Part shown: positions 5,088-63,791 of the stretch, in pieces | Layout: every line of letters starts with the position of its first letter | How positions within the stretch are numbered: position 1 is the stretch's first letter | Virus record (IMG/VR): IMGVR_UViG_3300045988_132703 | Length of the DNA stretch: 64,000 bases | Reading direction: 5' to 3' (one strand) | Origin: a virus | The notes under the pieces: model-generated | What the model was told of the DNA's origin: nothing | The model's input: the letters and a program-made list of their open reading frames with translations, nothing else | The model's database searches: none | Position numbers and translations under genes: made by a program

Positions 5088-5654
5088 ATGGCTTTAAATA
5101 AGTATGGAAGATAGATTATTGAAGTAATAGATTAGAGAATTGATTCCTATATAAAAGAATCAAAAATTACAGTCCGTTATATTGGGCAAATAAAAGAAGT
5201 TCTTGGAAATAATAGATATAGAGTATAGCTTGTTGGCTATGATACTATTTACACTTTTCCCGCACGCCCCTATGTTGATTCGATTGTAAATGATTATGTT
5301 TATATTGAAAGCAAAGCTGGAAATATTGATAATGGTATAATTATTGATAAATTAAATGGTAGTTATGGTTATATTTACAATGCCAATGGTTCAGTAGACC
5401 AAGATTTAAATAGTCAAGGCGCAATGTTAAAATCAGTTTATGACAGAGACAACAATGGTATCGTAGATAATGCAACTCGTGTTAATAATCATACAGTTCA
5501 ATCTGATGTTCCAGCCAACGCGCAATTTACAGATACTACCGATGCTTCCGGTATCCGTATGGCAAATGGGCAAACTGTTGAGCAAATTATTAATTCTATA
5601 AGCGCCGCTGTAGGCAACAGCGATTCTATTGACGAAGGCTTTTACTATAATTAA
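5088..5654 (+). CDS. Tail-fibre-like protein
   Basis: ATG at 5088, 3 in-frame TAG, TAA at 5652. Carries the motif MLKSVYDRDNNGIVDNATRVNNHTV...VPANAQFTDT seen in phage fibre proteins. A related motif occurs in 39655..40158. Confidence 0.5.
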
Positions 5655-5660
5655 AATTAA

Positions 5661-5694
5661 AATAAGGGTCAAATTTCTGATCCTTATTTTTTTT
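5661..5694 (+). terminator. Rho-independent terminator
   Basis: 11-bp stem 5661-71/5778-88-equivalent (AATAAGGGTCA / TGATCCTTATT, one G:U pair), 6-nt loop, then a T-run at 5689-94. Confidence 0.6.
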
Positions 5695-5702
5695 AAATTT
5701 CA

Positions 5703-5730
5703 TTGGCAAATTTTGCCAAAATTTTATAAT
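5703..5730 (+). promoter_or_regulatory. Sigma70-like promoter with overlapping palindrome
   Basis: TTGGCA (5703-08), 16-nt spacer, TATAAT (5725-30). The perfect palindrome TTGGCAAA/TTTTGCCAA (5703-5719) covers the -35 and spacer. Confidence 0.5.
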
Positions 5731-5773
5731 TCTCAATTAGGCTTTTCGCTTTATAGATGAAGGGGTGAGATAG

Positions 5774-5995
5774 ATGAATGATAAATTTCTTGATGCAATG
5801 ATTGAGCAAAGTATTCAAATGATGACCGATGCTTGTCATGGAAAAACATTAAGCAAAGATGAAATGGCATTTATTATTGCTACACAAAAAGCAGAAGATA
5901 AAAGAAAACGTGCTCAAATACTACCAAATTTGATTAAAAATTCTCAAAATATTTTACCACTAATTAATTCATTATTTGGCGGTGGAGGTAATTAA
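5774..5995 (+). CDS. Small hypothetical protein
   Basis: Track ORF with RBS GAAGGGGTGAG upstream. No TAG, ends in TAA. Confidence 0.5.
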   Translation: MNDKFLDAMIEQSIQMMTDACHGKTLSKDEMAFIIATQKAEDKRKRAQILPNLIKNSQNILPLINSLFGGGGN

Positions 5996-12468: not shown

Positions 12469-12778
12469 CTTGCCAAACATAATTTCTTATGCCATTTAAA
12501 ATGTTTTGGTCTGGACTATACCATCATCTTTAAGAAAAGATGTCCTTATTATAGTCTCTGAACGTCTATCTCAATTTAATATATTTTCTATAAAAAATAT
12601 ACTATTGGATATTTCGCTGCGTTTGATTATCCAATCTTAAACGATTTTACCTTACCGTTCCCATTACTGAACGCCGCAAATTAATTACTTAATTTGTTTG
12701 GTTGTTTAAGCTCTAAGGAGTTCCCCGCAATTTAAAGGATTTTCGATATACATCACTGTATAAAGTCGCTTAATTTTA
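12469..12778 (-). mobile_element. Group I intron (family A), ORF-less, in dnaE
   Basis: The 5' exon ends in U and the intron ends in G. Core motifs are TTAAATTGCGGGGA (P4-like), GCGTTCAGTAATGGG and ATAGTC. Stops occur in all frames. Confidence 0.7.
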
Positions 12779-40158: not shown

Positions 40159-40215
40159 AATAGAGTTGATTAAATAAATTTTTACTTTCATTTTAGAATA
40201 AATGGAGGTGGATTT

Positions 40216-41640
40216 ATGACCCCAAAATATAAAGGTATTGATGTTTCAAAACATCAAGGAATTATTAATTGGGATTAGCTTGCAACTGATCCTAATGTGC
40301 AGTTTGTAATTATTCGCGCGGGCTATGGTAGTTATTATCCAGCTCAAGTTGATGCGCAATTTGAAACAAACTATAAACAAGCAAAAGCGCATAACATTCC
40401 AGTTGGTGTCTATTGGTATTCTTATGCTTCAACAGTAAGCGAAGTTCATCAAGAAATGGCCGCACTATTAAAAACAATAGAAGGAAAACAATTTGAATAT
40501 CCTATTTATTTTGATCAAGAATATGAAAAAGACATTGTCGCTTTAACAAAAGCTCAAAGAACAGAACTTGTCAAAACAGCACTTAATATCCTTGAAGGAA
40601 AAGGATATTATGCTGCACTTTATTGCAGCGCGGACTGGTTAAATAATCGTTTAAACTATAATCAATTAACTTCTTATGATATGTGGATCGCATAGTATGG
40701 GACAAATTGTTCCGCCAAACTTCCATACGGAATGTGGCAATATTCATCAAAAGGAAAAGTTAATGGTATTTCTACTGATGTGGATTTAGATTATTGCTAT
40801 AAAGATTATCCAAACATAATCAAGAAAGCTGGACTGAATGGTTATAAAAAAGATAGTTTAGCTACTCCATCAGCTTCAACAACCCCGATTGTTTCTTCTA
40901 CTGATTATGTGCTAGATTGGCCGCTACAAGGGCAGCATGTAATTACAGCTGGTTGGTGTTATTCTACTGGTTCACTACATTAGGCTATTGATTTAAGAGT
41001 AACTTTAAAATAGCCAATTTATGCTGCCGGAGCGGGAATAGTTAATTTTGTTTATACTTGGAACGGTAAAATAACTAATGGTGATACGAATAGTTATGGC
41101 AATTGCATAAAAATTCTTCATGATAAAAAGTATAATGGCAAAAACATTGAGACTCTTTATGCTCATTTAGATAGTTATGTCGTTTCAAAAGGACAAAGAG
41201 TTATGGCAGGATAGTTAATTGGCTATGCCGGTTACACTGGTCATGTTGTTCCTGCTGGGCCAAACGGCAAACATTTGCATTTTGAAGTTCGTTTGTCTGG
41301 CAAGAGAACTAATCCTTTAGTCTGGTTAGATGCTGATTTTACGACAAAAGATTCTTCTGTTTATACTTTTGGTAAGGGAGAGCGTAGCGCGATTCGCTCA
41401 ACTGAATCATCTAAACCTACTGCTCCAACTCAACCATCTATTCCTCAAAAGACTATTACTTTTAAGGATGGTCGTTGGAATGTGCGCAAAGGACCCGGTA
41501 TGGAATATGGCATTGTCGGATAGATTACTAGTCCACAAAATGGGAAATCAACTTGCATTAACTATTCTGAAATTAAAAATCAATGGTATAAAACTGTTTA
41601 TGGCTATGTAGGCCCAGCTGCAATCAAAAGCCATACATGA
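40216..41640 (+). CDS. Endolysin: GH25 muramidase + M23 peptidase + SH3-like domain
   Basis: GGAGGTG RBS. GIDVSKHQG...WIA(TAG)YG is the GH25 part. H(TAG)AIDL...YAHL...G(TAG)LIGYAGYTG...HLHFEV is the M23 part. 6 in-frame TAG (40276, 40693, 40981, 41011, 41212, 41521). Confidence 0.85.
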
Positions 41641-44004: not shown

Positions 44005-45756
44005 ATGCCTAAATCTAATCATTATGGGCGATTTTATAATAGTGGATTTTATAAAATATATAAACCTAAAGCAAGAAAAGAAAATTTATTTTTTGTTTTT
44101 GAACATGGCACAACGGAAAAAACATCTTATTCAGCAACAAAAATTAAAACTTTAAAAAAGCGTTTATTAGATTCTATTCGAGCTGCGGAATAGATCAGTT
44201 TATAGACAGAATATGGGTTAGTTACAGAATTATGTTCTCATTTAGATAATGATTCAAATTTAACAAAAACAATTAAAGAATATTTAAAAGCTGATGCTAA
44301 TTATTCTGAAATTTAGGGTATTATTCAAAAAGGCGGAGCGACTTCTCAAGCAGAATTAATGCAGTTTTTTAATAGTCGTTATTTTAACACAATGGCTGGT
44401 ACACTTACTGCAGGAGATATTGTTATAAATTCGCGCGGTGAAAAAGATTTAACTGACGCTTTTTGGAGAAAATTACATCAAGATACTTGGGGTCTTTAGA
44501 CTGCGGCATCAAAAGCTGTAACTTATCAAAAAGCATTTGAGAGAATGAAAAGTAAATGGAAAACTTATGGTCATACTCAAAAGGGAAATACTTGGTCTGT
44601 TGTTGGAGATTATTTTGGTTCTATGGGGCAAACATTTCAAGAAAGTGGTTTAGAAGATGAATTATTAATTTATTTTATGTCAGAAATATCTAAAGGCAAA
44701 AAAACACCAGATTAGATTAAAGCTCTAATAGCCTAGGGAGATTAGGCTAAATTTGAGATGCAACGAACTGACAAAGGAGATTTGACTCAAAAACATGGTC
44801 AATTTCAAGAAATATTAGCTAATATTTTAAATGAATTTTATTTACCATAGATTTATGGACAGCTAGGTGTTGGAGTTACATTAACTCATACGGGTAATGA
44901 TTCAAGAAAATATTCTAAAATGGATTTATCTTCTGGTAAATTAGTGAGAGCAGATGAATATAACGTTGGTTAGACAGATTTAAAAATTAATTTTAATTTT
45001 AATGACACAAGTAAATTCTCTTCTAAATACTAGGTAAATATTAGTGCTAAAATGAATCAAGGTTTTGCACGTTTAGAAAATGAAGAAAAACGGCATACAG
45101 ATAGATATTTAACTCATATTTATAGCGGTGGCACTTTAGGTTCAGCATTAAATAGAATTTATAGCAGCCCTGTTTTTAGTGAAACTGGGATGCTAACAGA
45201 AGATAATTTTATAGATTTAGCTTACCTTTTGATAAATGCTGCACAAGGTGGTATTTCTGAAAACAATAAAGATCAAGCTATTTAGGCTTATAAAGCAGCA
45301 ATTTCTTTTGTTGGAATGGAAGAAATTGGAAACACTTTAGGTTTTGATTCTAGCAAAACTGGTAAAAATATAAAAGTTGCAGGTTTAGATATTGGAGCTT
45401 CTACCGTTGTTAATTTATTTTTGATAAATGGTAAATATATAACTGCTTCGGCTTTCTTTTCTGCTCTATATGATTTTATCAATGATAATGAAACAAAAGC
45501 AATGTCAACTAATATTACTTTTGCTAAGACTTTTGATGAATCTGAATTAACGACTTCTTTAGAAAATCAAAGAGTTTATTCTCAAGGTTATTTAAATTTT
45601 ATAAATAGTAATAATTTAGGTTCTCAAAAATCTCATAATAATTTTACTTTTATTCAAGGTGATCCTGTAAAAGTTAGAGACTATATTATGTCAAAGACTA
45701 AAGCTCAAGAATTTAACATTAAATGGACAACTTTTTGGAGAACTTTTTCTGGCTAA
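44005..45756 (+). CDS. Hypothetical 583-aa protein
   Basis: GAGGTGA RBS. 11 in-frame TAG join track ORFs 44005.., 45052.. and 45316..45756. The weak D...(Q)TDLK motif is only suggestive of a nuclease. Confidence 0.5.
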
Positions 45757-45761
45757 ATTCT

Positions 45762-45790
45762 TTGACTTTCTCTTAACTTCATGCTATAAT
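45762..45790 (+). promoter_or_regulatory. Consensus promoter
   Basis: TTGACT, 17-nt spacer, TATAAT, then AATTATAGAAAG. Confidence 0.6.
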
Positions 45791-45839
45791 AATTATAGAA
45801 AGTTAAGAAAAATACATACTTAAAAGGAGTATATTTAAT

Positions 45840-46448
45840 ATGAAGAAATTTTATTGCTGCGACTATTGTGACGAGCTTTTTGAGACTGAAGCTGAATGTA
45901 AGGCTCACGAAGCGACTTGCTTTGAAAAGAAAGATTATGACGAGAGTCGTAAAATGGATAAAGATTCTCTAATTCTCCATCTACGTGAGTTCATCGAGGA
46001 AGTTGAAATCTTCAATGAAGCCTATGGCGCGGACATCATGGATGAATTGCTTAATGATTTCCGCGATGGCGAGTTGAGCTTCGATGGTTGCGAGCATAAG
46101 TGCAATGACACTTATGACTGTGATTGTGAAGATAAAGAGAATGATGAAGATTACGATGGAAATGACGACGAAATCTGCGATGAAGATTTTTATGATGATT
46201 TTTTTGGTATTTCTCATATAAAGAATGCTGAGGAACGTCTTGAGGAAATTCTTAAAGATTGCTGTAATAATGACAAAGAATATACTTTTTATCTTAATGG
46301 TAAGAAAGTAAGTAAAGAAGACCTCAAGAAAGAGCTGGCTGATATTTTTTCTGCTAAGATTGTCCCAGCAGCAAAAGATGCGACTAAAACCGCAGTAAAA
46401 AAAACTGATGATTTTTTGAGTGCGATTCTCGAAAAACTAGATAAGTAA
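45840..46448 (+). CDS. Highly acidic protein with N-terminal C2HC zinc-finger-like motif
   Basis: CDYCDELFETEAECKAHEATC. Long D/E-rich stretch. No TAG. Confidence 0.5.
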   Translation: MKKFYCCDYCDELFETEAECKAHEATCFEKKDYDESRKMDKDSLILHLREFIEEVEIFNEAYGADIMDELLNDFRDGELSFDGCEHKCNDTYDCDCEDKENDEDYDGNDDEICDEDFYDDFFGISHIKNAEERLEEILKDCCNNDKEYTFYLNGKKVSKEDLKKELADIFSAKIVPAAKDATKTAVKKTDDFLSAILEKLDK

Positions 46449-57925: not shown

Positions 57926-57956
57926 AGAGCATAGAGAAATCTATGCTCTTTTTTTA
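57926..57956 (+). terminator. Rho-independent terminator
   Basis: AGAGCATAG-N6-CTATGCTCT followed by T7. Confidence 0.7.
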
Positions 57957-58013
57957 TTAACAATTTTAAATTCTTATGTTATAATTATTATAGAAAATGA
58001 AAAAGGAGATAAT

Positions 58014-58244
58014 ATGAAAATCAAGAAAGTAGAGTATATTGTTTGTCTAAAGAATGATTTCTTTATGCCTAAGACTACTGTTAAACGGCAATCTTGCGGT
58101 AAGTTGGAGAATATCGCAAATGGTAGATTTTATTTTAGATTGAATGGTAGTAATGCTGTAGTTATTGTTCCTCATGCCGAGATTGATTGGATGGCTCCTA
58201 GTAAGGAATTTTGGGAGCGAGGATGTAGAAAAGAAGATATTTGA
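58014..58244 (+). CDS. Small hypothetical protein
   Basis: AAAGGAG RBS. TGTTATAAT extended -10 upstream (about 57979-87). No TAG. Confidence 0.5.
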   Translation: MKIKKVEYIVCLKNDFFMPKTTVKRQSCGKLENIANGRFYFRLNGSNAVVIVPHAEIDWMAPSKEFWERGCRKEDI

Positions 58245-58269
58245 CAAAAAACTGTAAGTATGCTATAAT
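58241..58269 (+). promoter_or_regulatory. Consensus promoter
   Basis: TTGACA (overlaps the TGA stop), 17-nt spacer, TATAAT, then AATTATAGAAAAT. Confidence 0.6.
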
Positions 58270-58301
58270 AATTATAGAAAATATGAAAAGGAGTAAATTC
58301 T

Positions 58302-58943
58302 ATGTTCGATAGTTTTAATAAAATGTTCCGAAAGATTCCTGCTGGTTGGTGTCGTCTTAGTTTGACTGGCGGCATTGCAGTTAAGACTTCTAATGGTTAT
58401 AAGACTTATGATGTTGCGACTGGCAATCTTGTCAACTGCTCTGATTTTGTGCTTGATGTTGGTGACGATATGTTCTTCTGCATTCCGACCAATACTCTAT
58501 TCAAGGGCGATATTATTCTTGTAAATAATAAGCCTGCTGCGGTTATCAAGGTTGAGAATAATCAGATTACTGCTTTCCGCTATGAAGATTCGACTATTGT
58601 GACTATCGTACCTGAGCATCTGGTTTTTCTTGGTAATACTTATTTCTATTCCAAGATTGTGTCTATGTTTGGCGGCGCGAATGGTACTAGCGTTGACCCA
58701 AAGAATATCATGCAGATTATGATGATGTCTGAGATGTTGAAGGGTTCTGGTTCTGGTGACAATAAGATGATGGCTTTCATGGCAATGTCAATGATGGGTA
58801 ATAATAATCCTTTTGCTGGGCTGATGAGTTCTATGAATCCCATTGCCCCTATCAGTACTACTCCGGCAGTAATGACTACTCCTGTTCAGACTGCCGCTCC
58901 TGCCGAAGCAGCAACTGCTAATAACGAAAATACTACTGTTTAA
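58302..58943 (+). CDS. Hypothetical protein with Met-rich low-complexity tail
   Basis: Track ORF with AAAGGAG RBS. No TAG. Confidence 0.55.
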   Translation: MFDSFNKMFRKIPAGWCRLSLTGGIAVKTSNGYKTYDVATGNLVNCSDFVLDVGDDMFFCIPTNTLFKGDIILVNNKPAAVIKVENNQITAFRYEDSTIVTIVPEHLVFLGNTYFYSKIVSMFGGANGTSVDPKNIMQIMMMSEMLKGSGSGDNKMMAFMAMSMMGNNNPFAGLMSSMNPIAPISTTPAVMTTPVQTAAPAEAATANNENTTV

Positions 58944-58963
58944 TTAAAGAAAGAGGTATATTT

Positions 58964-59836
58964 ATGGGTGGAGGTTCTTGGACCGCGCAGAGTTATACTG
59001 CATATCGTTCTACTACTAAAGCGTGCAACATGGACGCACTTAATTGCGCTTCTGTATATGACATTTATCAAGAGAAAGGGCTTAATCAGGCACTTTCTCC
59101 GATGAATGTAATGCGTGAGGCTTGTGATTCTGAGGAGCATCCTAATAGTTTGCCAGTTATTATTGGTCTTGATGTAACTGGCTCTATGGGCACTGCATCT
59201 GCTCGTTGTGCTCAGAAGTTGAGTGACATTATGACTGAGGTTATTAAGAAAACTAAAGACGTTCAGTTTATGTTTATGGGCATTGGTGACGTTGAATGTG
59301 ATCGTGTTCCTATCCAGCTGACTCAGTTTGAAAGTGATGTCCGTATCGCGCAGCAGATGGAGAAGATTTATTTTGAAGGTGGCGGTGGCGGCAACGATTA
59401 CGAAAGTTATACTGCTGCATGGTATATGGGTAGCCGTCACTGCAAGCTAGATTGCTGGGCAAAGGGTAAAAAGGGTTTGATTATCACTCTAGGTGATGAA
59501 CCGCTTAATCCTATTCTTGAATCCTACGGACTCAAGAAAGCAACTGGCGATAGTCTCCAGGCTGATGTTAAAACCAAAGAACTATATGACGAGACGGCAG
59601 AGAAGTATGATATTTTTCATATTTCTATTGATGACCCGTCTAGCAGCTATAATTATCGCGCAAAGAGAATTGACGAATCTTTTGAGAAGATTCTCCCCAC
59701 TGGTCATTATAAGGTAGCTACTCTTGAGCAGCTTCCGAATTTGATCACGGCTATTATCGAGGGGCATTATAACGGCTTTGAGACTCTTGAAAACGCGGAA
59801 CCGACTAGCGAAGATACCGCTTGGACTAACTGGTAA
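58964..59836 (+). CDS. von Willebrand factor A (vWA) domain protein
   Basis: MIDAS-like IIGLDVTGSMG. LIITLGDEP. No TAG. Confidence 0.65.
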   Translation: MGGGSWTAQSYTAYRSTTKACNMDALNCASVYDIYQEKGLNQALSPMNVMREACDSEEHPNSLPVIIGLDVTGSMGTASARCAQKLSDIMTEVIKKTKDVQFMFMGIGDVECDRVPIQLTQFESDVRIAQQMEKIYFEGGGGGNDYESYTAAWYMGSRHCKLDCWAKGKKGLIITLGDEPLNPILESYGLKKATGDSLQADVKTKELYDETAEKYDIFHISIDDPSSSYNYRAKRIDESFEKILPTGHYKVATLEQLPNLITAIIEGHYNGFETLENAEPTSEDTAWTNW

Positions 59837-59854
59837 TTAAAGAAAGGATTAATC

Positions 59855-61042
59855 GTGAAAGAAGTAAAGGTAGTTATTGGCGCAAATTATGGTGACGAAG
59901 GTAAGGGTCTAATGACTAACTACTTCGCGTATCAGGCTGATAAGAAGCATAAAAAGTGTTTGAATATTCTTTTTAATGGCGGTGCTCAGCGTGGGCATAC
60001 CGTAGAAAATGGAGGTTTCCGTCACGTCTTTCATGCTTTTGGCGCAGCATCATACCAAGATGCGGATACCTTTTACAATCATCATTTCATGGTTAATCCT
60101 TTTATTTTTCTTTCTGAGAAAAATGAATTAGAGAAACTCTATGTGAATCATGGGCGAACTTGGGTTGATTGGAATTGTGAAATTACAACCCCTTATGATA
60201 TTTTATTTAATCAAGCTCTTGAGCAATCAAGAGGAAAAAGTCGTCATGGCTCGTGTGGTTGCGGAATTTTCGAAACTTTTAATCGAGTAAATAAAGGATT
60301 TCATTTTACTTGTAAAGAACTTTTTATGTCTTTTGGTGAACTTTATAGTAAGATTAAATTTATTCGTGATAAATATTTTGCTGAAAAGCGAATGAAAGAA
60401 ACGGATATTGTTTTTACAATGGAGTGGCGTGAAAACTTCTTCAGTGAGATTACTCTTGCTAATTTTGTAAAAGACTTAATGGATTTTAAAAAGTCTGTTT
60501 ATTTTAGTTCTTTAGATGAAATTTCAGATTATTATGACACTTTAATTTTTGAGGGCGGACAAGGGCTTGCTCTTGATATGGATAATAAAAAAGACTTTCC
60601 GCATCTTACTCCGTCTCATACCGGCTCTGATTGGGTAATCGAGCAATTAAGAAAATTGGATGGAGTATTTGATGTTGAAGTATGCTATGTTACTCGGAGT
60701 TATTTTACTCGGCATGGCGCAGGCGCGCTAAAAAATGAAGTGCATGAACCATGCGAACTTGGTATTAAGAATATGGATAAAACCAATGTTAAAAATGATT
60801 GGCAGGGGTCTATTCGTTATGCCCCTTTCAATGAGAAAGATTACATTCAGCGAGTTCAGCATGATGTAGATAAATGGAGTTATGATTTGCTTCATAAGAA
60901 AATTGAGCATTTTAAAGTCTCACAATCTTTTACCCATCTAAATGAAATTTCTCTTATTGGAGAAGTGGATACTTCTTTATCTCCTTATGTTTATCTTTCT
61001 TTTTCCCCCAATTTTGATGATGTTGTTTATATCCATAAATAA
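59855..61042 (+). CDS. Adenylosuccinate synthetase (PurA/PurZ) superfamily protein, divergent
   Basis: GDEGKG P-loop, GGAQRGHT, GSCGCGIFET, FEGGQGLALD, VTRSYFTRHGAG. The Asp-binding TTGRRR loop is not conserved. No TAG. Confidence 0.7.
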   Translation: MKEVKVVIGANYGDEGKGLMTNYFAYQADKKHKKCLNILFNGGAQRGHTVENGGFRHVFHAFGAASYQDADTFYNHHFMVNPFIFLSEKNELEKLYVNHGRTWVDWNCEITTPYDILFNQALEQSRGKSRHGSCGCGIFETFNRVNKGFHFTCKELFMSFGELYSKIKFIRDKYFAEKRMKETDIVFTMEWRENFFSEITLANFVKDLMDFKKSVYFSSLDEISDYYDTLIFEGGQGLALDMDNKKDFPHLTPSHTGSDWVIEQLRKLDGVFDVEVCYVTRSYFTRHGAGALKNEVHEPCELGIKNMDKTNVKNDWQGSIRYAPFNEKDYIQRVQHDVDKWSYDLLHKKIEHFKVSQSFTHLNEISLIGEVDTSLSPYVYLSFSPNFDDVVYIHK

Positions 61043-61115
61043 TTGACAATATTTACCTCTTATGATATAATTATATTAGAAATAGTATAATTATACTCAT
61101 AAGAGGTATTTTTTT
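61043..61115 (+). promoter_or_regulatory. Consensus promoter nested in a 12-bp inverted repeat + U7 (terminator/promoter module)
   Basis: TTGACA (61043-48), 17-nt spacer, TATAAT (61066-71). Arms TACCTCTTATGA (61054-65) and TCATAAGAGGTA (61097-108), then T7. Confidence 0.6.
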
Positions 61116-62162
61116 ATGTATCAATTTTCAATAGTAATCCCTTGTTTTAATAGTTCTCCATATATCGCAGCGACACTTGAGTCAATTGTAAATTAGCATT
61201 TAGGTGATAAAATTCAAGTTGTACTCGTGGACGATTGTTCAACAGAACCATTTGATGAAGTAATAAAGCCTTATGAAGAAAAGCTTCATATTAAAAAAGT
61301 AAAAACAGAAAAGAATCTTGGGACTGGTATGGCTCGTCAATTTGGTATTGATAACGCCGATGGTGATTGGGTTATTTTTTGTGACCATGATGATTTCTTC
61401 GTGCCTAATACTTTCAACAGAGTTAGAACAATCATTCGCAATAATCCCAGCCGCAATATAATTCAAACTAGATTTCAAGAGGTAACTCAATCTGGCGAAA
61501 TAATCCCTTATTCTCTTGAGAAAGGGATGAATTGGGTTCATGGAAAATTTTTTAGAAGAAGTTTTTTAAAAGATTATAATTTAACTTTTTGTGACGGGCT
61601 TGAAACGCATGAGGATATTTATTTTTCAATTTTAACTCGTTTAATGACAGAGCATCTTGGCGCGCCAACTTTAAATTGCGATTTAATAATTTATAATTGG
61701 GTTAATCGACCAGAGTCTCTATCTCATAGACGTGAAACTGGTTTAGATTTATTTTGCAATCATTTTCAAGATTATGTTACAAGTGCACTAGGCCCTCTTG
61801 ATAAATTGCATAATGAATTATCTTTAGAGGAAATTTTATCTCAAGGTTTAAGTTCTTTCTTATTTGTTTATTTTTATGTACAAGGATTTTACCAACTCGG
61901 ACGTGGAGATGCAAAAGAATATCGTAGAATAATGCTTAATTGCGTTAAAAAGATTATGACTTACACTGGATTTAATTCACAACAATTAGAATCTATTCTT
62001 GGTCAAAATCCTGCGACTTTTTGTATGATTCGTGAAAAAGCTTTTGATTCAGTTGGTTATTTCTTTGAAGTTGATAATGTTGCAGAGATTATCGAGTCCG
62101 CAGAAGCAGAGTTAATTGAATCTAAGGAGAAAGAATTAAAGGATGAACAATCAGAGAGTTGA
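61116..62162 (+). CDS. Family 2 glycosyltransferase
   Basis: IPCFNS, VVLVDDCS, CDHDDFF. In-frame TAG at about 61194. Paralog of 42396..43442. Confidence 0.75.
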
Positions 62163-63135
62163 TGTTATAATTCCTTTTTACAATCAAAAAGATTTTTTAG
62201 TTAGATGTTTAAGTAGTATTCAAGTGTAGACGATTTCAGATGACATAGACGTAACTATTATAGATGATTGTTCTGATGAAAACATTGATGATATTATTAC
62301 GTTTTTTAAGCGTTTTTTAAATATAAATGTACTTCATTTAAATCGTAACAAAGGACCTGGCTATGCTCGACAACTAGGATTAGATATTACTTCTGCGCCT
62401 TATGTCTGTTTTATAGATGCAGACGACATTTTTGAAAACGCTTATGCTGTAGAATATATGCGTGGATTGATGCTTGTTAATAAGAAAAGACCTGCTGTAT
62501 TCACATCGTTCGTTGAGGAGTGCAGCGATGGACGAAAAATTCCTCATATTAAAGATAATACATGGATATTTGGAAAGATTTATTCTCGAGAATTTCTTAA
62601 TGAAAACAAAATTGTTTTCAGTGATAGTCGAGAGAATGAAGATAAAGGTTTTAACTGTGCAGTAATGCTTTGCGCGCAGAAAGATCCAAATAACGGAATT
62701 CGTTTTGAAGATCGTATTACTTACTCTTGGAAGTGGAATGAAAAATCTATTACAAGAGAAAATAATTTTGACTATCGTCATAGAGATTTAATTGGCTTTA
62801 CTTATAACACTCTTGATGCTATTCAAATCGGAATTAAAGCAAATGCTCCGATAAATGCGATAGCAAGGCAATCAACTGTTACTATGATATATCTTTATTA
62901 TCGTTATCTTGAAAATTTAAAGACTAATGATTATTCTAATGAAGATATAATTAAATATTGTTATGATTTTTATATGCAAGCGTATAAAAATTATGGTTAT
63001 AAACCAACAGATAGAGAATTTAAATTTATTAAAGATAATCAAACTACGACATTTAGAAAAAGAAATTTGATAGATGTAGATAGTGTCCCTATTTCTTTTG
63101 AAAATTTTATTCTAAATCTTGATGGAAATATTTGA
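62143..63135 (+). CDS. Family 2 glycosyltransferase
   Basis: IIPFYNQ, TIIDDCSD, FIDADD. 1 in-frame TAG. 20-nt overlap with the upstream gene. Confidence 0.7.
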
Positions 63136-63205: not shown

Positions 63206-63284
63206 GGCTTTAGTAGTGTAATGGTTGTAAGCACGCCAGTCTGTGGAACTGGTAGAGGGAGTTCGAATCTCCTCTTTAGCCCCA
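63206..63284 (+). tRNA. tRNA-His (GTG)
   Basis: Hand-folded cloverleaf. G-1 (63206) sits opposite C73. Anticodon loop is CTGTGGA (GTG at 63243-45). T-loop TTCGAAT, encoded CCA. The acceptor stem has two U:U mismatches. Confidence 0.75.
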
Positions 63285-63359
63285 ATAGAAAGGCTGTTGT
63301 ATGATTACGATTGCAGTTTTCTTCATTCTCCTTTTCGCTTTATGGTATATGTTTTTCTG

Positions 63360-63389
63360 TTGACTTTTTAAAAAATATATGCTATAATA
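63360..63389 (+). promoter_or_regulatory. Consensus promoter for the downstream tRNAs
   Basis: TTGACT, 18-nt spacer, TATAAT. Leader hairpin AATGTAAG-N14-CTTACATT follows. Confidence 0.55.
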
Positions 63390-63427
63390 TTTAATGTAAG
63401 GTTGAGAAATAAATCTTACATTGATAT

Positions 63428-63504
63428 GCCCTCGTGAGCAAATTGGCAAAGCTAAACGGCTCAAACCCGTTGTTTTGTGGGTTCAAATCCCATCGAGGGT
63501 ACCA
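63428..63504 (+). tRNA. tRNA with anticodon CAA (Leu codon UUG) but class I architecture
   Basis: 7-bp acceptor (G1:U72), anticodon loop CTCAAAC (CAA at 63462-64), 5-nt variable loop, T-loop TTCAAAT, A73, encoded CCA. Confidence 0.65.
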
Positions 63505-63720
63505 AGAGGTTCTGACGTGACGCCTCGTTAATGTTGAAAAGTCAGGGTAGTGGTGATTAAGGCTAGAAGTGCTAGAGTTCCAGCTGCTACCTAAAAGAAC
63601 AAGTAGGAATAGCATGCACTTTGGTTTCCTTTGTCAATACAGTTGCGTACGAACTGCGGACAAAAAAGATAACGGCATAGAGTTGTCAATTGCTAGGTTT
63701 GAAGGTTCCTAGCATTATAA
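63505..63720 (+). other. Structured 216-nt spacer between tRNAs (possible ncRNA)
   Basis: Several local hairpins (GGTAG..CTACC, AGGAA..TTCCT, TTGTC..GACAA, CAGTT-GCGTACG-AACTG, CTAGG..CCTAG). No credible ORF. Confidence 0.25.
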
Positions 63721-63791
63721 TGGGGTATCACCTAGTGGCAGGGTAGCGAGCTTTGACCTCGTGTGTAGGTGTTCGATTCACCTTACCCCAA
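63721..63791 (+). tRNA. tRNA-Gln (TTG)
   Basis: U1:A72, G2:C71 and G3:C70 acceptor as in bacterial tRNA-Gln. Anticodon loop CTTTGAC (TTG at 63753-55). T-loop TTCGATT. No encoded CCA. Confidence 0.75.

Follow-up and report, generated by a model that had tools for sequence, protein, structure and literature searches.

A cassette of four genes lies on the + strand of the viral DNA analyzed here, IMG/VR record IMGVR_UViG_3300045988_132703, the whole 64,000-nucleotide stretch of which is referred to as the window. The cassette encodes a 76-aa protein, a Met-rich protein, a protein with a von Willebrand factor A (vWA) fold, and a divergent member of the adenylosuccinate synthetase (PurA) superfamily, and its open reading frames (ORFs) lie exactly where an earlier reading of the same letters, the original prediction, had placed them. 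The cargo of this cassette is a horizontally mobile module composed of an invariant core, the vWA and PurA-like genes, and a variable adaptor gene located before the core, which in the window is the Met-rich gene. The 76-aa protein has no Pfam, PHROG, or PADLOC match and is recovered by tblastn only in near-identical phages (loci L005 and L007-L012). The conserved unit is thus smaller than the cassette and comprises two or three of its genes: beyond the near-identical phages, only the Met-rich, vWA, and PurA-like genes recur, and of these only the latter two are universal.

The vWA and PurA-like genes are neighbors in approximately 155 of 160 loci retrieved from collections of viral and bacterial sequences. 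Of 79 IMG/VR loci, 77 have the vWA gene immediately before the PurA-like gene, one has it after that gene, and one lacks it, and a vWA gene is linked to the enzyme gene in 77 of 80 GTDB loci. The original prediction had named a lack of co-occurrence elsewhere as the outcome that would speak against it, and these counts dispose of that outcome decisively. Because the enzyme profile served as the bait for these loci, the counts are to be read as "the enzyme implies the vWA protein." The converse rests on GenBank phage matches per genus, which for the two genes number 200 versus 201 in Mycobacterium, 10 versus 10 in Rhizobium, and 6 versus 6 in Vibrio, together with one exception, protein P0409, described below. 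The two genes lie side by side in Rhizobium phage RHph_TM2_3B, Vibrio phage phiKT1024, and mycobacteriophage Cane17, the proteins of which are 35-39% identical to those of the window, and are carried by approximately 200 cluster C mycobacteriophages (Bxz1 gp248/gp250, of which gp248 is the vWA homolog). The pairwise distances of the vWA and PurA-like proteins are correlated (r = 0.81), with 0 of 500 permutations as high. Clustering of all ORFs from the 86 loci of the viral set (85 plus the window) reveals no other family common to more than 15 loci, which indicates that the module is autonomous and that its neighbors are variable. Neither DatZ nor MazZ, the partners expected of a Z-cluster, nor any other family recurs beside the enzyme across 165 loci, no search for HD or MazG domains having been made in the rest of the window. 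No AAA+ (MoxR-type) family recurs in the neighborhoods. In a paper on Vi01-like phages, the genes named include those for an adenylosuccinate synthase and a vWA protein; these phages are not among the tblastn matches to the vWA or the PurA-like protein.

The PurA-like enzyme matches PF00709 (E value of 3e-29) over profile positions 1-278 of 416 only. Its scores against the purA equivalog models, 76.5 bits for TIGR00184 (cut-off of 395.55) and 79.8 bits for NF002223 (cut-off of 402), bear out the claim that it is divergent and no ordinary PurA ortholog. The enzyme also matches phrog_1211, and PHROG 1211 pools the PurA-like family with PurZ. Of the "PurA/PurZ-family" label attached to it originally, the PurA half stands and the PurZ half does not. 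The score with the PurZ model NF038379 is 29.1 bits, where the cut-off is 300; the family profile reaches 133 bits with PurA in the PDB and 37 bits with PurZ, the latter match being confined to the N-terminal 60 residues (PurZ structures 6fm1 and 6fko match approximately 60 N-terminal profile positions, and 7odx matches 110). In addition, PurZ is defined by Ser14 in place of the catalytic Asp (bioRxiv 10.1101/2025.10.22.683976), and Asp14 is retained in 150 of the 151 non-identical homologs over which conservation in the enzyme was counted. The PurA-like enzyme is a new subfamily of a known superfamily. The 7407 "homologs" listed for the enzyme are not taken as the size of this subfamily, as the tail of that list may include true PurA.

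The GDEGKG, GHT, FEGGQG, and TRHGAG motifs are present in the enzyme, and the TTGRRR motif is absent, as originally described. The catalytic set of PurA (P-loop Asp13, His41, and Gln224) is matched by D14, H48, and Q236, together with K17, each conserved in 150 or 151 of the 151 homologs. Residues G13, D14, K17, G18, H48, and T49 are found in 150 homologs and Q45 in 149; S133, R144, E233, Q236, G237, R281, Y283, T285, H287, G288, and G290 are found in all 151; and T252, S254, and T256 are found in 147-150. This invariance of catalytic and nucleotide-site residues indicates that the protein is under selection as an enzyme. The statement that the GTP/IMP core is kept holds for the catalytic core and not for the part that recognizes guanine, where the TKLD motif of PurA reads THLN. 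At the position of D333 of this motif, Asn is found in 101 of the 151 homologs (TH-x-N) and Asp in 49 (TH-x-D); the motif (K331 and D333) is placed provisionally by the E. coli sequence. The GTG start of the gene is supported by a conserved N terminus, MKxxKVVIGANYGDEGKG, which carries the P-loop and precedes the first ATG; the 376-aa version in public gene calls (P0001) is therefore truncated and has no P-loop.

The enzyme also differs from PurA in the loop associated with aspartate. The GATTGRRRR loop of PurA (T300, T301, R303, and R305) is replaced by an invariant DxTNxxNxxQxxxRY sequence (family form DxTNxxNxxQGSxRY), in which T310, N311, and Q317 are found in all 151 homologs and R321 in 150. 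In a profile alignment to Yersinia PurA, the family sequence TNxxNxfQG-SlRY falls on GNEYGATTGRSRRTG, such that T300 and T301 align with an aromatic residue and a Gln, R303 is deleted, and R305 is a hydrophobic residue. The position of R131 is variable in the family alignment. Mutagenesis by Fromm and Honzatko reportedly implicates R131, R303, and R304/R305 in aspartate binding by E. coli PurA. The loss of the Asp-binding loop described originally is upheld.

The vWA protein matches phrog_2971 (E value of 1e-55) and has no Pfam match at threshold. Sequence profiles of this protein and of the Met-rich protein find nothing significant in the PDB. The AlphaFold2 (AF2) model of the vWA protein (predicted local distance difference test score, pLDDT, of 72; predicted template modeling score, pTM, of 0.76) adopts a Rossmann-like vWA fold, and a Foldseek search of the PDB with this model returns integrin I domains, TFIIH p44, and the NorD vWA domain with E values of approximately 1e-7, among 314 matches with E<=1e-3. 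The residues of a metal ion-dependent adhesion site (MIDAS), D70-x-T72-x-S74, T150, and D178, are invariant or nearly so in the family alignment, and a Dx[ST]GS motif is found in 146 of 160 vWA homologs. The model, the structural matches, and the motif statistics agree with the vWA fold and MIDAS-type DVTGS motif read originally from the sequence, and metal binding through the MIDAS residues is predicted. Both tails of the protein are disordered in the AF2 model, yet carry conserved end motifs: the N terminus reads MGxxx[W/Y/F] in 146 of 150 homologs, and 126 of the 150 end in Trp or Phe. The vWA-like family comprises 1861 representatives at 50% identity, 1347 of them with E<=1e-10, and nearly all are approximately 300 aa in length. 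One member, P0409 (locus L166, 258-1487), has a C-terminal U-box (Pfam E value of 2.7e-14); the gene after it has no PF00709 match, and this is the only architecture seen without the PurA-like enzyme. In Cane17, gp251 (locus L003, 3909-5726) is a vWA homolog of 605 aa in which the match is split by an intein-sized insert of approximately 240 aa, and other cluster C phages have an uninterrupted vWA homolog.

The gene that precedes the core is variable. In 66 of 79 IMG/VR loci, the Met-rich gene is the one immediately before the vWA gene; among 151 non-identical loci the adaptor gene encodes a Met-rich protein (variant A) in 79 and a protein of approximately 335 aa (variant B) in 57. The Met-rich protein has no Pfam family. 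It comprises an N-terminal β-rich domain with two SH3/KOW-like barrels (residues ~9-121), a conserved helical segment (YMMMSEMMKG...MLPFMMM), and a low-complexity tail, which is acidic in most homologs. The N-domain has a weak likeness to eIF5A, HEX-1, and KOW domains by sequence profile (hidden Markov model, HMM, E value of 0.03), and the AF2 model of the protein (pLDDT of 62, approximately 80 in the N-domain) has only weak SH3/KOW/eIF5A-like Foldseek matches (E value of 0.04). A hypusine-like acceptor lysine was considered in this domain and dropped, the loop that aligns to the hypusine loop of eIF5A having no Lys. Rhizobium and Vibrio phages carry remote Met-rich counterparts with up to 16.5% Met. 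The variant B adaptor combines a J domain (Pfam DnaJ, 3e-8), in which the HPD motif is conserved, with a protein-kinase fold, the latter matched by Pkinase in Cane17 gp250 (4e-9); in metagenomic forms of this protein, the Asp of HRD is missing from the kinase fold and GGWW stands where DFG would be. A complete Hanks-type kinase lies upstream of the pair in a Melainabacteria locus, and in some Proteobacteria and Acidobacteria the vWA/PurA-like pair stands alone. In some Lachnospiraceae and Saccharofermentans loci, an extra gene of approximately 296 aa without a Pfam match lies between the vWA and PurA-like genes (L110, L123, L125, L131 (~5097-5987), L149, and L163).

Beyond phages, the module is found in the chromosomes of isolates (five Massilia, Clostridium drakei, Inquilinus limosus, and Ruminococcus), with unrelated housekeeping genes around it; the chromosomal assignment rests on these isolate genomes, as "genome" loci derived from metagenome-assembled genomes (MAGs) may include binned phage contigs. 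A Nudix and winged-helix regulator of the NrtR type adjoins the module in approximately 25-27 of 80 bacterial or MAG loci and is divergently transcribed in Proteobacteria; examples are found in L086 (6059-6766), L124 (3199-3867, - strand), and L139 (3141-3797, - strand). No NrtR-type regulator is seen in the window or in viral loci L001-L085. The regulators beside the bacterial and MAG copies hint at control by ADP-ribose or a related nucleotide. In L096 (7213-9480), an NrtR-type regulator is fused to a protein resembling radical S-adenosylmethionine (SAM) enzymes and HemN. Rfam searches of 11 bacterial loci find no riboswitch before the module, the only matches being a tRNA and, downstream in L139, a cobalamin riboswitch that is unrelated. 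Elsewhere among phage contigs, the module occupies accessory or early regions, near antirepressors, DNA methylases, SAM synthetase, and toxin-antitoxin genes.

In the window, positions 57926-61116 constitute an insulated transcription unit: a terminator, two near-perfect promoters of the host σ70 type, the four genes, and a terminator hairpin that overlaps the next promoter (Table 1). Promoters of its own had been proposed for the cassette, and P1 and P2 match the consensus at 11 and 12 of 12 positions, respectively. The "terminator/promoter module" described at the downstream edge is likewise real, as the 5' arm of the hairpin overlaps the -10 element of P3. None of 200 shuffled sequences folds as well as this hairpin. 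RNA that reads through from the cassette can form the terminator, and RNA begun at P3, which contains the 3' arm only, cannot; the arrangement is a compact terminator-within-promoter design. Promoter-like sites in the region as a whole show no excess over shuffled sequences.

Table 1. Features of the cassette and its flanks (positions are those of the window; residue numbers are those of the encoded proteins).
Feature	Position	Strand	Description
Intrinsic terminator	57926-57958	+	Closes upstream tail-gene operon; 10-bp stem and loop of 4 (57926-57949), then T-run
Promoter P1	57957-57985	+	TTAACA-17-TATAAT, 11/12 matches; TG before -10, then leader ATTATAGAAAAT
76-aa protein gene	58014-58244	+	Function not assigned; lineage-specific, outside conserved module
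Promoter P2	58241-58269	+	TTGACA-17-TATAAT, 12/12 matches; TG before -10; P1 leader motif; overlaps stop codon of 76-aa gene
Met-rich protein gene	58302-58943	+	213 aa; module adaptor, variant A; Met-rich C-terminal half
vWA-fold protein gene	58964-59836	+	290 aa; MIDAS-type motif; phrog_2971 match
MIDAS-type motif D70-V-T-G-S74	59171-59185	+	vWA protein; with T150 and D178
PurA-like enzyme gene	59855-61042	+	395 aa; GTG start; PF00709 match
P-loop G13-G18	59891-59908	+	PurA-like enzyme
Substitute loop D308-x-T-N-x-x-N-x-x-Q-x-x-x-R-Y322	60776-60820	+	PurA-like enzyme; replaces GATTGRRRR of PurA
T360-H-L-N363			PurA-like enzyme; in place of TKLD
Promoter P3	61043-61071	+	TTGACA-17-TATAAT, 12/12 matches; TG before -10; for downstream TAG-containing glycosyltransferase genes
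Cassette terminator	61054-61116	+	Perfect 25-bp hairpin (61054-61108) and U7; dG of -28 kcal/mol, z of -9.35

The window contains 19 copies of the -10 element with the leader motif, TATAATnATTATAGAAAAT, where 1.6 would be expected, and two exact copies are P1 and P2 of the cassette. The copies lie mostly before - strand (early or middle) genes between 12 and 31 kb; examples are found at 12583, 16572, 22571, 25112, 25222, and 25602 on the - strand and at 45785, 57980, 58264, and 63155 on the + strand, where the motif precedes only the cassette, ORF 45807-46448, and a tRNA cluster. The motif marks a class of phage promoter that is used mainly for - strand genes. The Met-rich/vWA and vWA/PurA-like gaps are 20 and 18 nt, respectively, and both have the form TAA-TTAAAGAAAG(A)GG-start, the full junctions being TAA-TTAAAGAAAGAGGTATATTT-ATG and TAA-TTAAAGAAAGGATTAATC-GTG. 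The Met-rich, vWA, and PurA-like genes form a tight operon, and translational coupling across the junctions of the cassette is plausible.

The late ORFs around the cassette, when delimited by TAA or TGA only, contain 56 in-frame TAG codons in 6892 codons on the + strand, with 11 in 44005-45756 and 6 in 40174-41640 as examples. The cassette itself contains none in 974 codons, where 7.9 would be expected (Poisson P = 3.7e-4), and the original description of a TAG-free cassette within a TAG-recoded late region is borne out. The ratio of CAG to CAA among Gln codons is 18:8 in the cassette versus 18:188 in the late ORFs, and the G+C fraction is 0.41-0.43 in the Met-rich and vWA genes versus approximately 0.31 in the flanks. 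This foreign composition and Gln codon use give the cassette the look of a horizontally acquired element, and the lack of in-frame TAG makes it readable without a TAG suppressor. No suppressor tRNA-CUA is found within the 64-kb window, though TAG is clearly read through. The promoter type and the absence of TAG suggest that the cassette is expressed early. The cassette neatly illustrates how TAG-recoded phages can hold genes of horizontal origin and probable early expression within a late region without letting TAG into them.

A second TAG-free ORF in the TAG-recoded late region, 45807-46448 (+ strand, 213 aa), lies behind a promoter of the same class, has no Pfam match, and may be another early-expressed insert. 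The tRNA cluster (63207-63791) contains His(GUG), Leu(CAA), and Gln(UUG). Directly downstream of the cassette are two family-2 glycosyltransferase genes (61117-63135), with three and one in-frame TAG; genes for a glycerophosphotransferase/GT1 protein and a cytidylyltransferase are found upstream in L005, a related contig. As a group, these genes point to a set for glycosylation, or of a teichoic-acid-like kind, beside the tail genes. Two loci of the same phage type (L005, 16785-20988, and L006, 7349-11552) have, approximately 6 kb beyond the downstream end of the cassette, a pair of radical-SAM genes on either side of a gene for a protein that faintly matches a family of Cxxx-repeat radical-SAM targets, and the set looks like one for the maturation of a peptide resembling those that are ribosomally synthesized and post-translationally modified.

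Taken together, these features point, tentatively and with confidence somewhat short of even, to a package for the ligation of a purine nucleotide to an amine other than aspartate, carried out with a vWA partner and an adaptor and used in early host takeover or counter-defense. The enzyme would bind a Mg-nucleoside triphosphate (Mg-NTP) and a purine 5'-monophosphate and phosphorylate the 6-oxo group, which is the first half-reaction of PurA; D14, H48, K17, and Q236 are all invariant. In the second half-reaction, an amine different from L-aspartate would displace the phosphate, as every arginine of the Asp site is gone and an invariant loop bearing Asn, Gln, Arg, and Tyr stands in its place. 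The vWA protein would be an obligate partner that presents or gates the acceptor or completes the active complex, with its conserved terminal peptides as probable docking motifs, and the product of the adaptor gene would tie the pair to host proteins (DnaK in the J-domain variant). In the phage, the package would act on the nucleotide pool or on a nucleotide signal, and its proposed role is neither the synthesis of the Z base nor a simple supply of AMP. Interference with nucleotide signaling or defense, one of the roles suggested originally, is a putative role.

Some observations weigh against this proposal. The bacterial context of housekeeping genes and NrtR-type regulators is no less compatible with a metabolic or stress function under regulation than with a function in conflict. 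A physical interaction between the vWA protein and the enzyme is suggested by their linkage and co-divergence only, and co-inheritance in an operon would by itself give co-divergence. The 5'-phosphate site is altered (N38 to Gln and T129 to Cys) and the invariant R144 is a guessed counterpart of R143, the residue contributed across the PurA dimer; a substrate other than inosine 5'-monophosphate (IMP) or guanosine 5'-monophosphate (GMP) is therefore possible. The remodeled loop could also bind aspartate in a new way. For all members of the module, the functions given here are read from sequences and models.

The closest competing account, which we consider rather unlikely, is that of auxiliary purine metabolism, in which the enzyme is a true, divergent adenylosuccinate synthetase using IMP, Asp, and NTP, and the vWA protein only regulates or stabilizes it. 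Such an enzyme would provide more AMP, ATP, or dATP during infection or repair a pool of adenylates that the host had deaminated. In the PDB and among HMMs, the enzyme is matched best by bona fide PurA (133 bits), its catalytic residues are intact, and a metagenome study places PurA-clade genes on phage contigs with unmodified DNA. Genes of NAD salvage lie nearby in Rhizobium phages, those for ribonucleotide reductase (RNR) and an NADAR protein lie nearby in Vibrio phages, and NrtR-type regulators flank the bacterial copies. What this account leaves unexplained is an obligate vWA partner that is accompanied, across phyla, by a chaperone-linked or kinase-like adaptor. Moreover, the score of the enzyme is a fifth of the purA equivalog cut-off, and R131, R303, and R304/R305, said to bind Asp in E. 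coli PurA, are all absent, with the other invariant loop instead. A purine chemistry directed at DNA, as in PurZ, is highly improbable. It would yield a modified purine deoxynucleotide (2-aminoadenine or an N6-substituted adenine) for virion DNA, for which there is precedent in the superfamily in the phages with Z genomes and a nominal link in PHROG 1211, where the family is pooled with PurZ. Against it stand the score with the PurZ model (29 bits versus 300), the restriction of matches with PDB PurZ chains to the N-terminal 60 residues, and the lack of a linked DatZ, MazZ, or polymerase gene in 165 loci. Of the roles originally suggested, DNA modification has the least support; the module is also found in bacterial chromosomes, beside housekeeping genes and NrtR-type regulators.

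An NTPase-driven vWA machine, in which the PurA-like protein is a nucleotide-hydrolyzing engine rather than a ligase, as MoxR AAA+ ATPases are for their vWA partners, and remodels or metal-loads a target protein together with the adaptor (the J-domain protein and DnaK, or the Met-rich protein), is in our judgment unlikely. The vWA proteins are typically paired with an NTPase, and the NorD vWA domain is among the structural matches; PurA belongs to the SIMIBI class of P-loop proteins, which also holds metallochaperone GTPases. The HPD motif conserved in variant B, the Met-rich segment of variant A, and the scaffold-like character of a kinase-like domain without its catalytic Asp residues would all suit such a machine. 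The residues of purine chemistry, however, namely H48, Q236, the phosphate-site residues S133-C134 and T252, and TRHG, are invariant in the 151 homologs, which is unexpected for a switch, and no metal-enzyme client is linked. Slightly less probable is a defense or exclusion module, carried by bacteria as well as phages, in which the ligation chemistry proposed above would serve an effector of abortive infection or superinfection exclusion that depletes IMP or GTP or makes a toxic nucleotide, with the vWA protein and adaptor as its sensor. A stand-alone operon with variable neighbors in bacterial chromosomes, accessory domains that resemble sensors (the J-domain pseudokinase, the Ser/Thr kinase, and the one vWA-U-box fusion), and the mobility and foreign composition of the module in the window phage are what would be expected of it. 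Yet the module has no PADLOC match, the few bacterial neighborhoods inspected contain housekeeping genes and no defense islands, and its fixation in approximately 200 lytic cluster C mycobacteriophages fits a function that benefits the phage. An improbable variant of the ligation itself is that the enzyme is directed at protein, such that phosphorylation of O6 of IMP or GMP is followed by the joining of the purine C6 to a protein amine. The best candidate acceptor would be the N-terminal Gly of the vWA protein, which lies within the conserved MGxxx[W/Y/F] motif (146 of 150) and would be exposed after removal of Met; the product would be an N6-linked nucleotide-protein conjugate (+330 Da for IMP or +345 Da for GMP), which the Met-rich or J-domain/DnaK adaptor would deliver or release. 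If true, this variant would represent a new post-translational modification or a protein-tethered nucleotide in the conflict of phage and host.

With non-aspartate ligation as the preferred reading, the module is of interest as a PurA-superfamily enzyme in which the activation chemistry is probably kept, the amine-binding site is swapped, and the gene is locked to that of a MIDAS vWA protein. PurZ provides the precedent that variants of this superfamily can have large biological consequences, and if the chemistry proposed here is right, both the reaction, a ligation of purine nucleotides, and the class of early phage function that the module represents would be new. Its span is broad, from Firmicute gut phages through jumbo-type phages of Rhizobium and Vibrio and the approximately 200 cluster C mycobacteriophages to the chromosomes of Proteobacteria, Cyanobacteria, and Clostridia, and it can be tested in tractable systems such as Bxz1-type phages on M. 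smegmatis, Vibrio phages, and Massilia isolates. The statement that the gene combination is not a described system holds in PADLOC-DB v2, where no model matches any of the four proteins (0 families, E<=0.1), and in the literature and databases searched, where no description of the vWA/PurA-like pair was found. In public records, the vWA partner is labeled "hypothetical," and the enzyme is mislabeled as adenylosuccinate synthetase or, after the PHROG family that holds PurZ, as "2-aminooxy adenylosuccinate synthetase."

Comparison with known systems shows what is shared and what is particular to the module. With PurA (PF00709; TIGR00184), the PurA-like family has in common the fold, the N-terminal 300 residues, the GDEGKG motif, the catalytic Asp and His, the FEGxQG and TRxGxG motifs, and probably the first half-reaction, the NTP-dependent phosphorylation of the purine 6-oxo group. 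Unlike PurA, it has a shorter and divergent C-terminal domain, TH-x-N in place of TKLD in two thirds of members, and a vWA gene nearly always adjacent. PurZ, the succino-amino-deoxyadenylate synthase of phages with Z genomes, is likewise a phage-borne member of the PurA superfamily with altered specificity that falls in PHROG 1211. The PurA-like family differs from it in having Asp14 rather than Ser14, in the lack of Z-cluster partners linked to it in the 165 loci, and in its chromosomal copies in bacteria.

The vWA side of the module has parallels of its own. The MoxR AAA+/vWA pairs (NorQ-NorD, CbbQ-CbbO, RavA-ViaA, and BchI-BchD) likewise couple the genes of a MIDAS vWA protein and a P-loop NTPase; the NTPase in the present module has a PurA-type ligase fold rather than an AAA+ fold, and neither a MoxR gene nor a client metalloenzyme is linked. 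Comparative genomics from the Aravind laboratory reportedly describes TerY-P triads, in which a vWA protein is found with a Ser/Thr kinase and a PP2C phosphatase. These resemble the module in placing a vWA gene in an operon with a kinase-fold partner and in their horizontal spread. The module differs in that it has no phosphatase, its kinase fold is mostly dead catalytically and fused to a J domain, and its constant partner is the PurA-like enzyme. J-domain proteins are also encoded by phages, an example being Rki of phage RB43, and the variant B adaptor similarly has a J domain with an HPD motif, which implies recruitment of the host DnaK. Variant B differs from Rki in joining its J domain to a pseudokinase and in its tie to the vWA/PurA-like pair, and the Met-rich variant carried by the window phage has no J domain. 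The enzyme is a new branch of a known superfamily, and knowledge of its chemistry may show the architecture of the system as a whole to be of a new kind.

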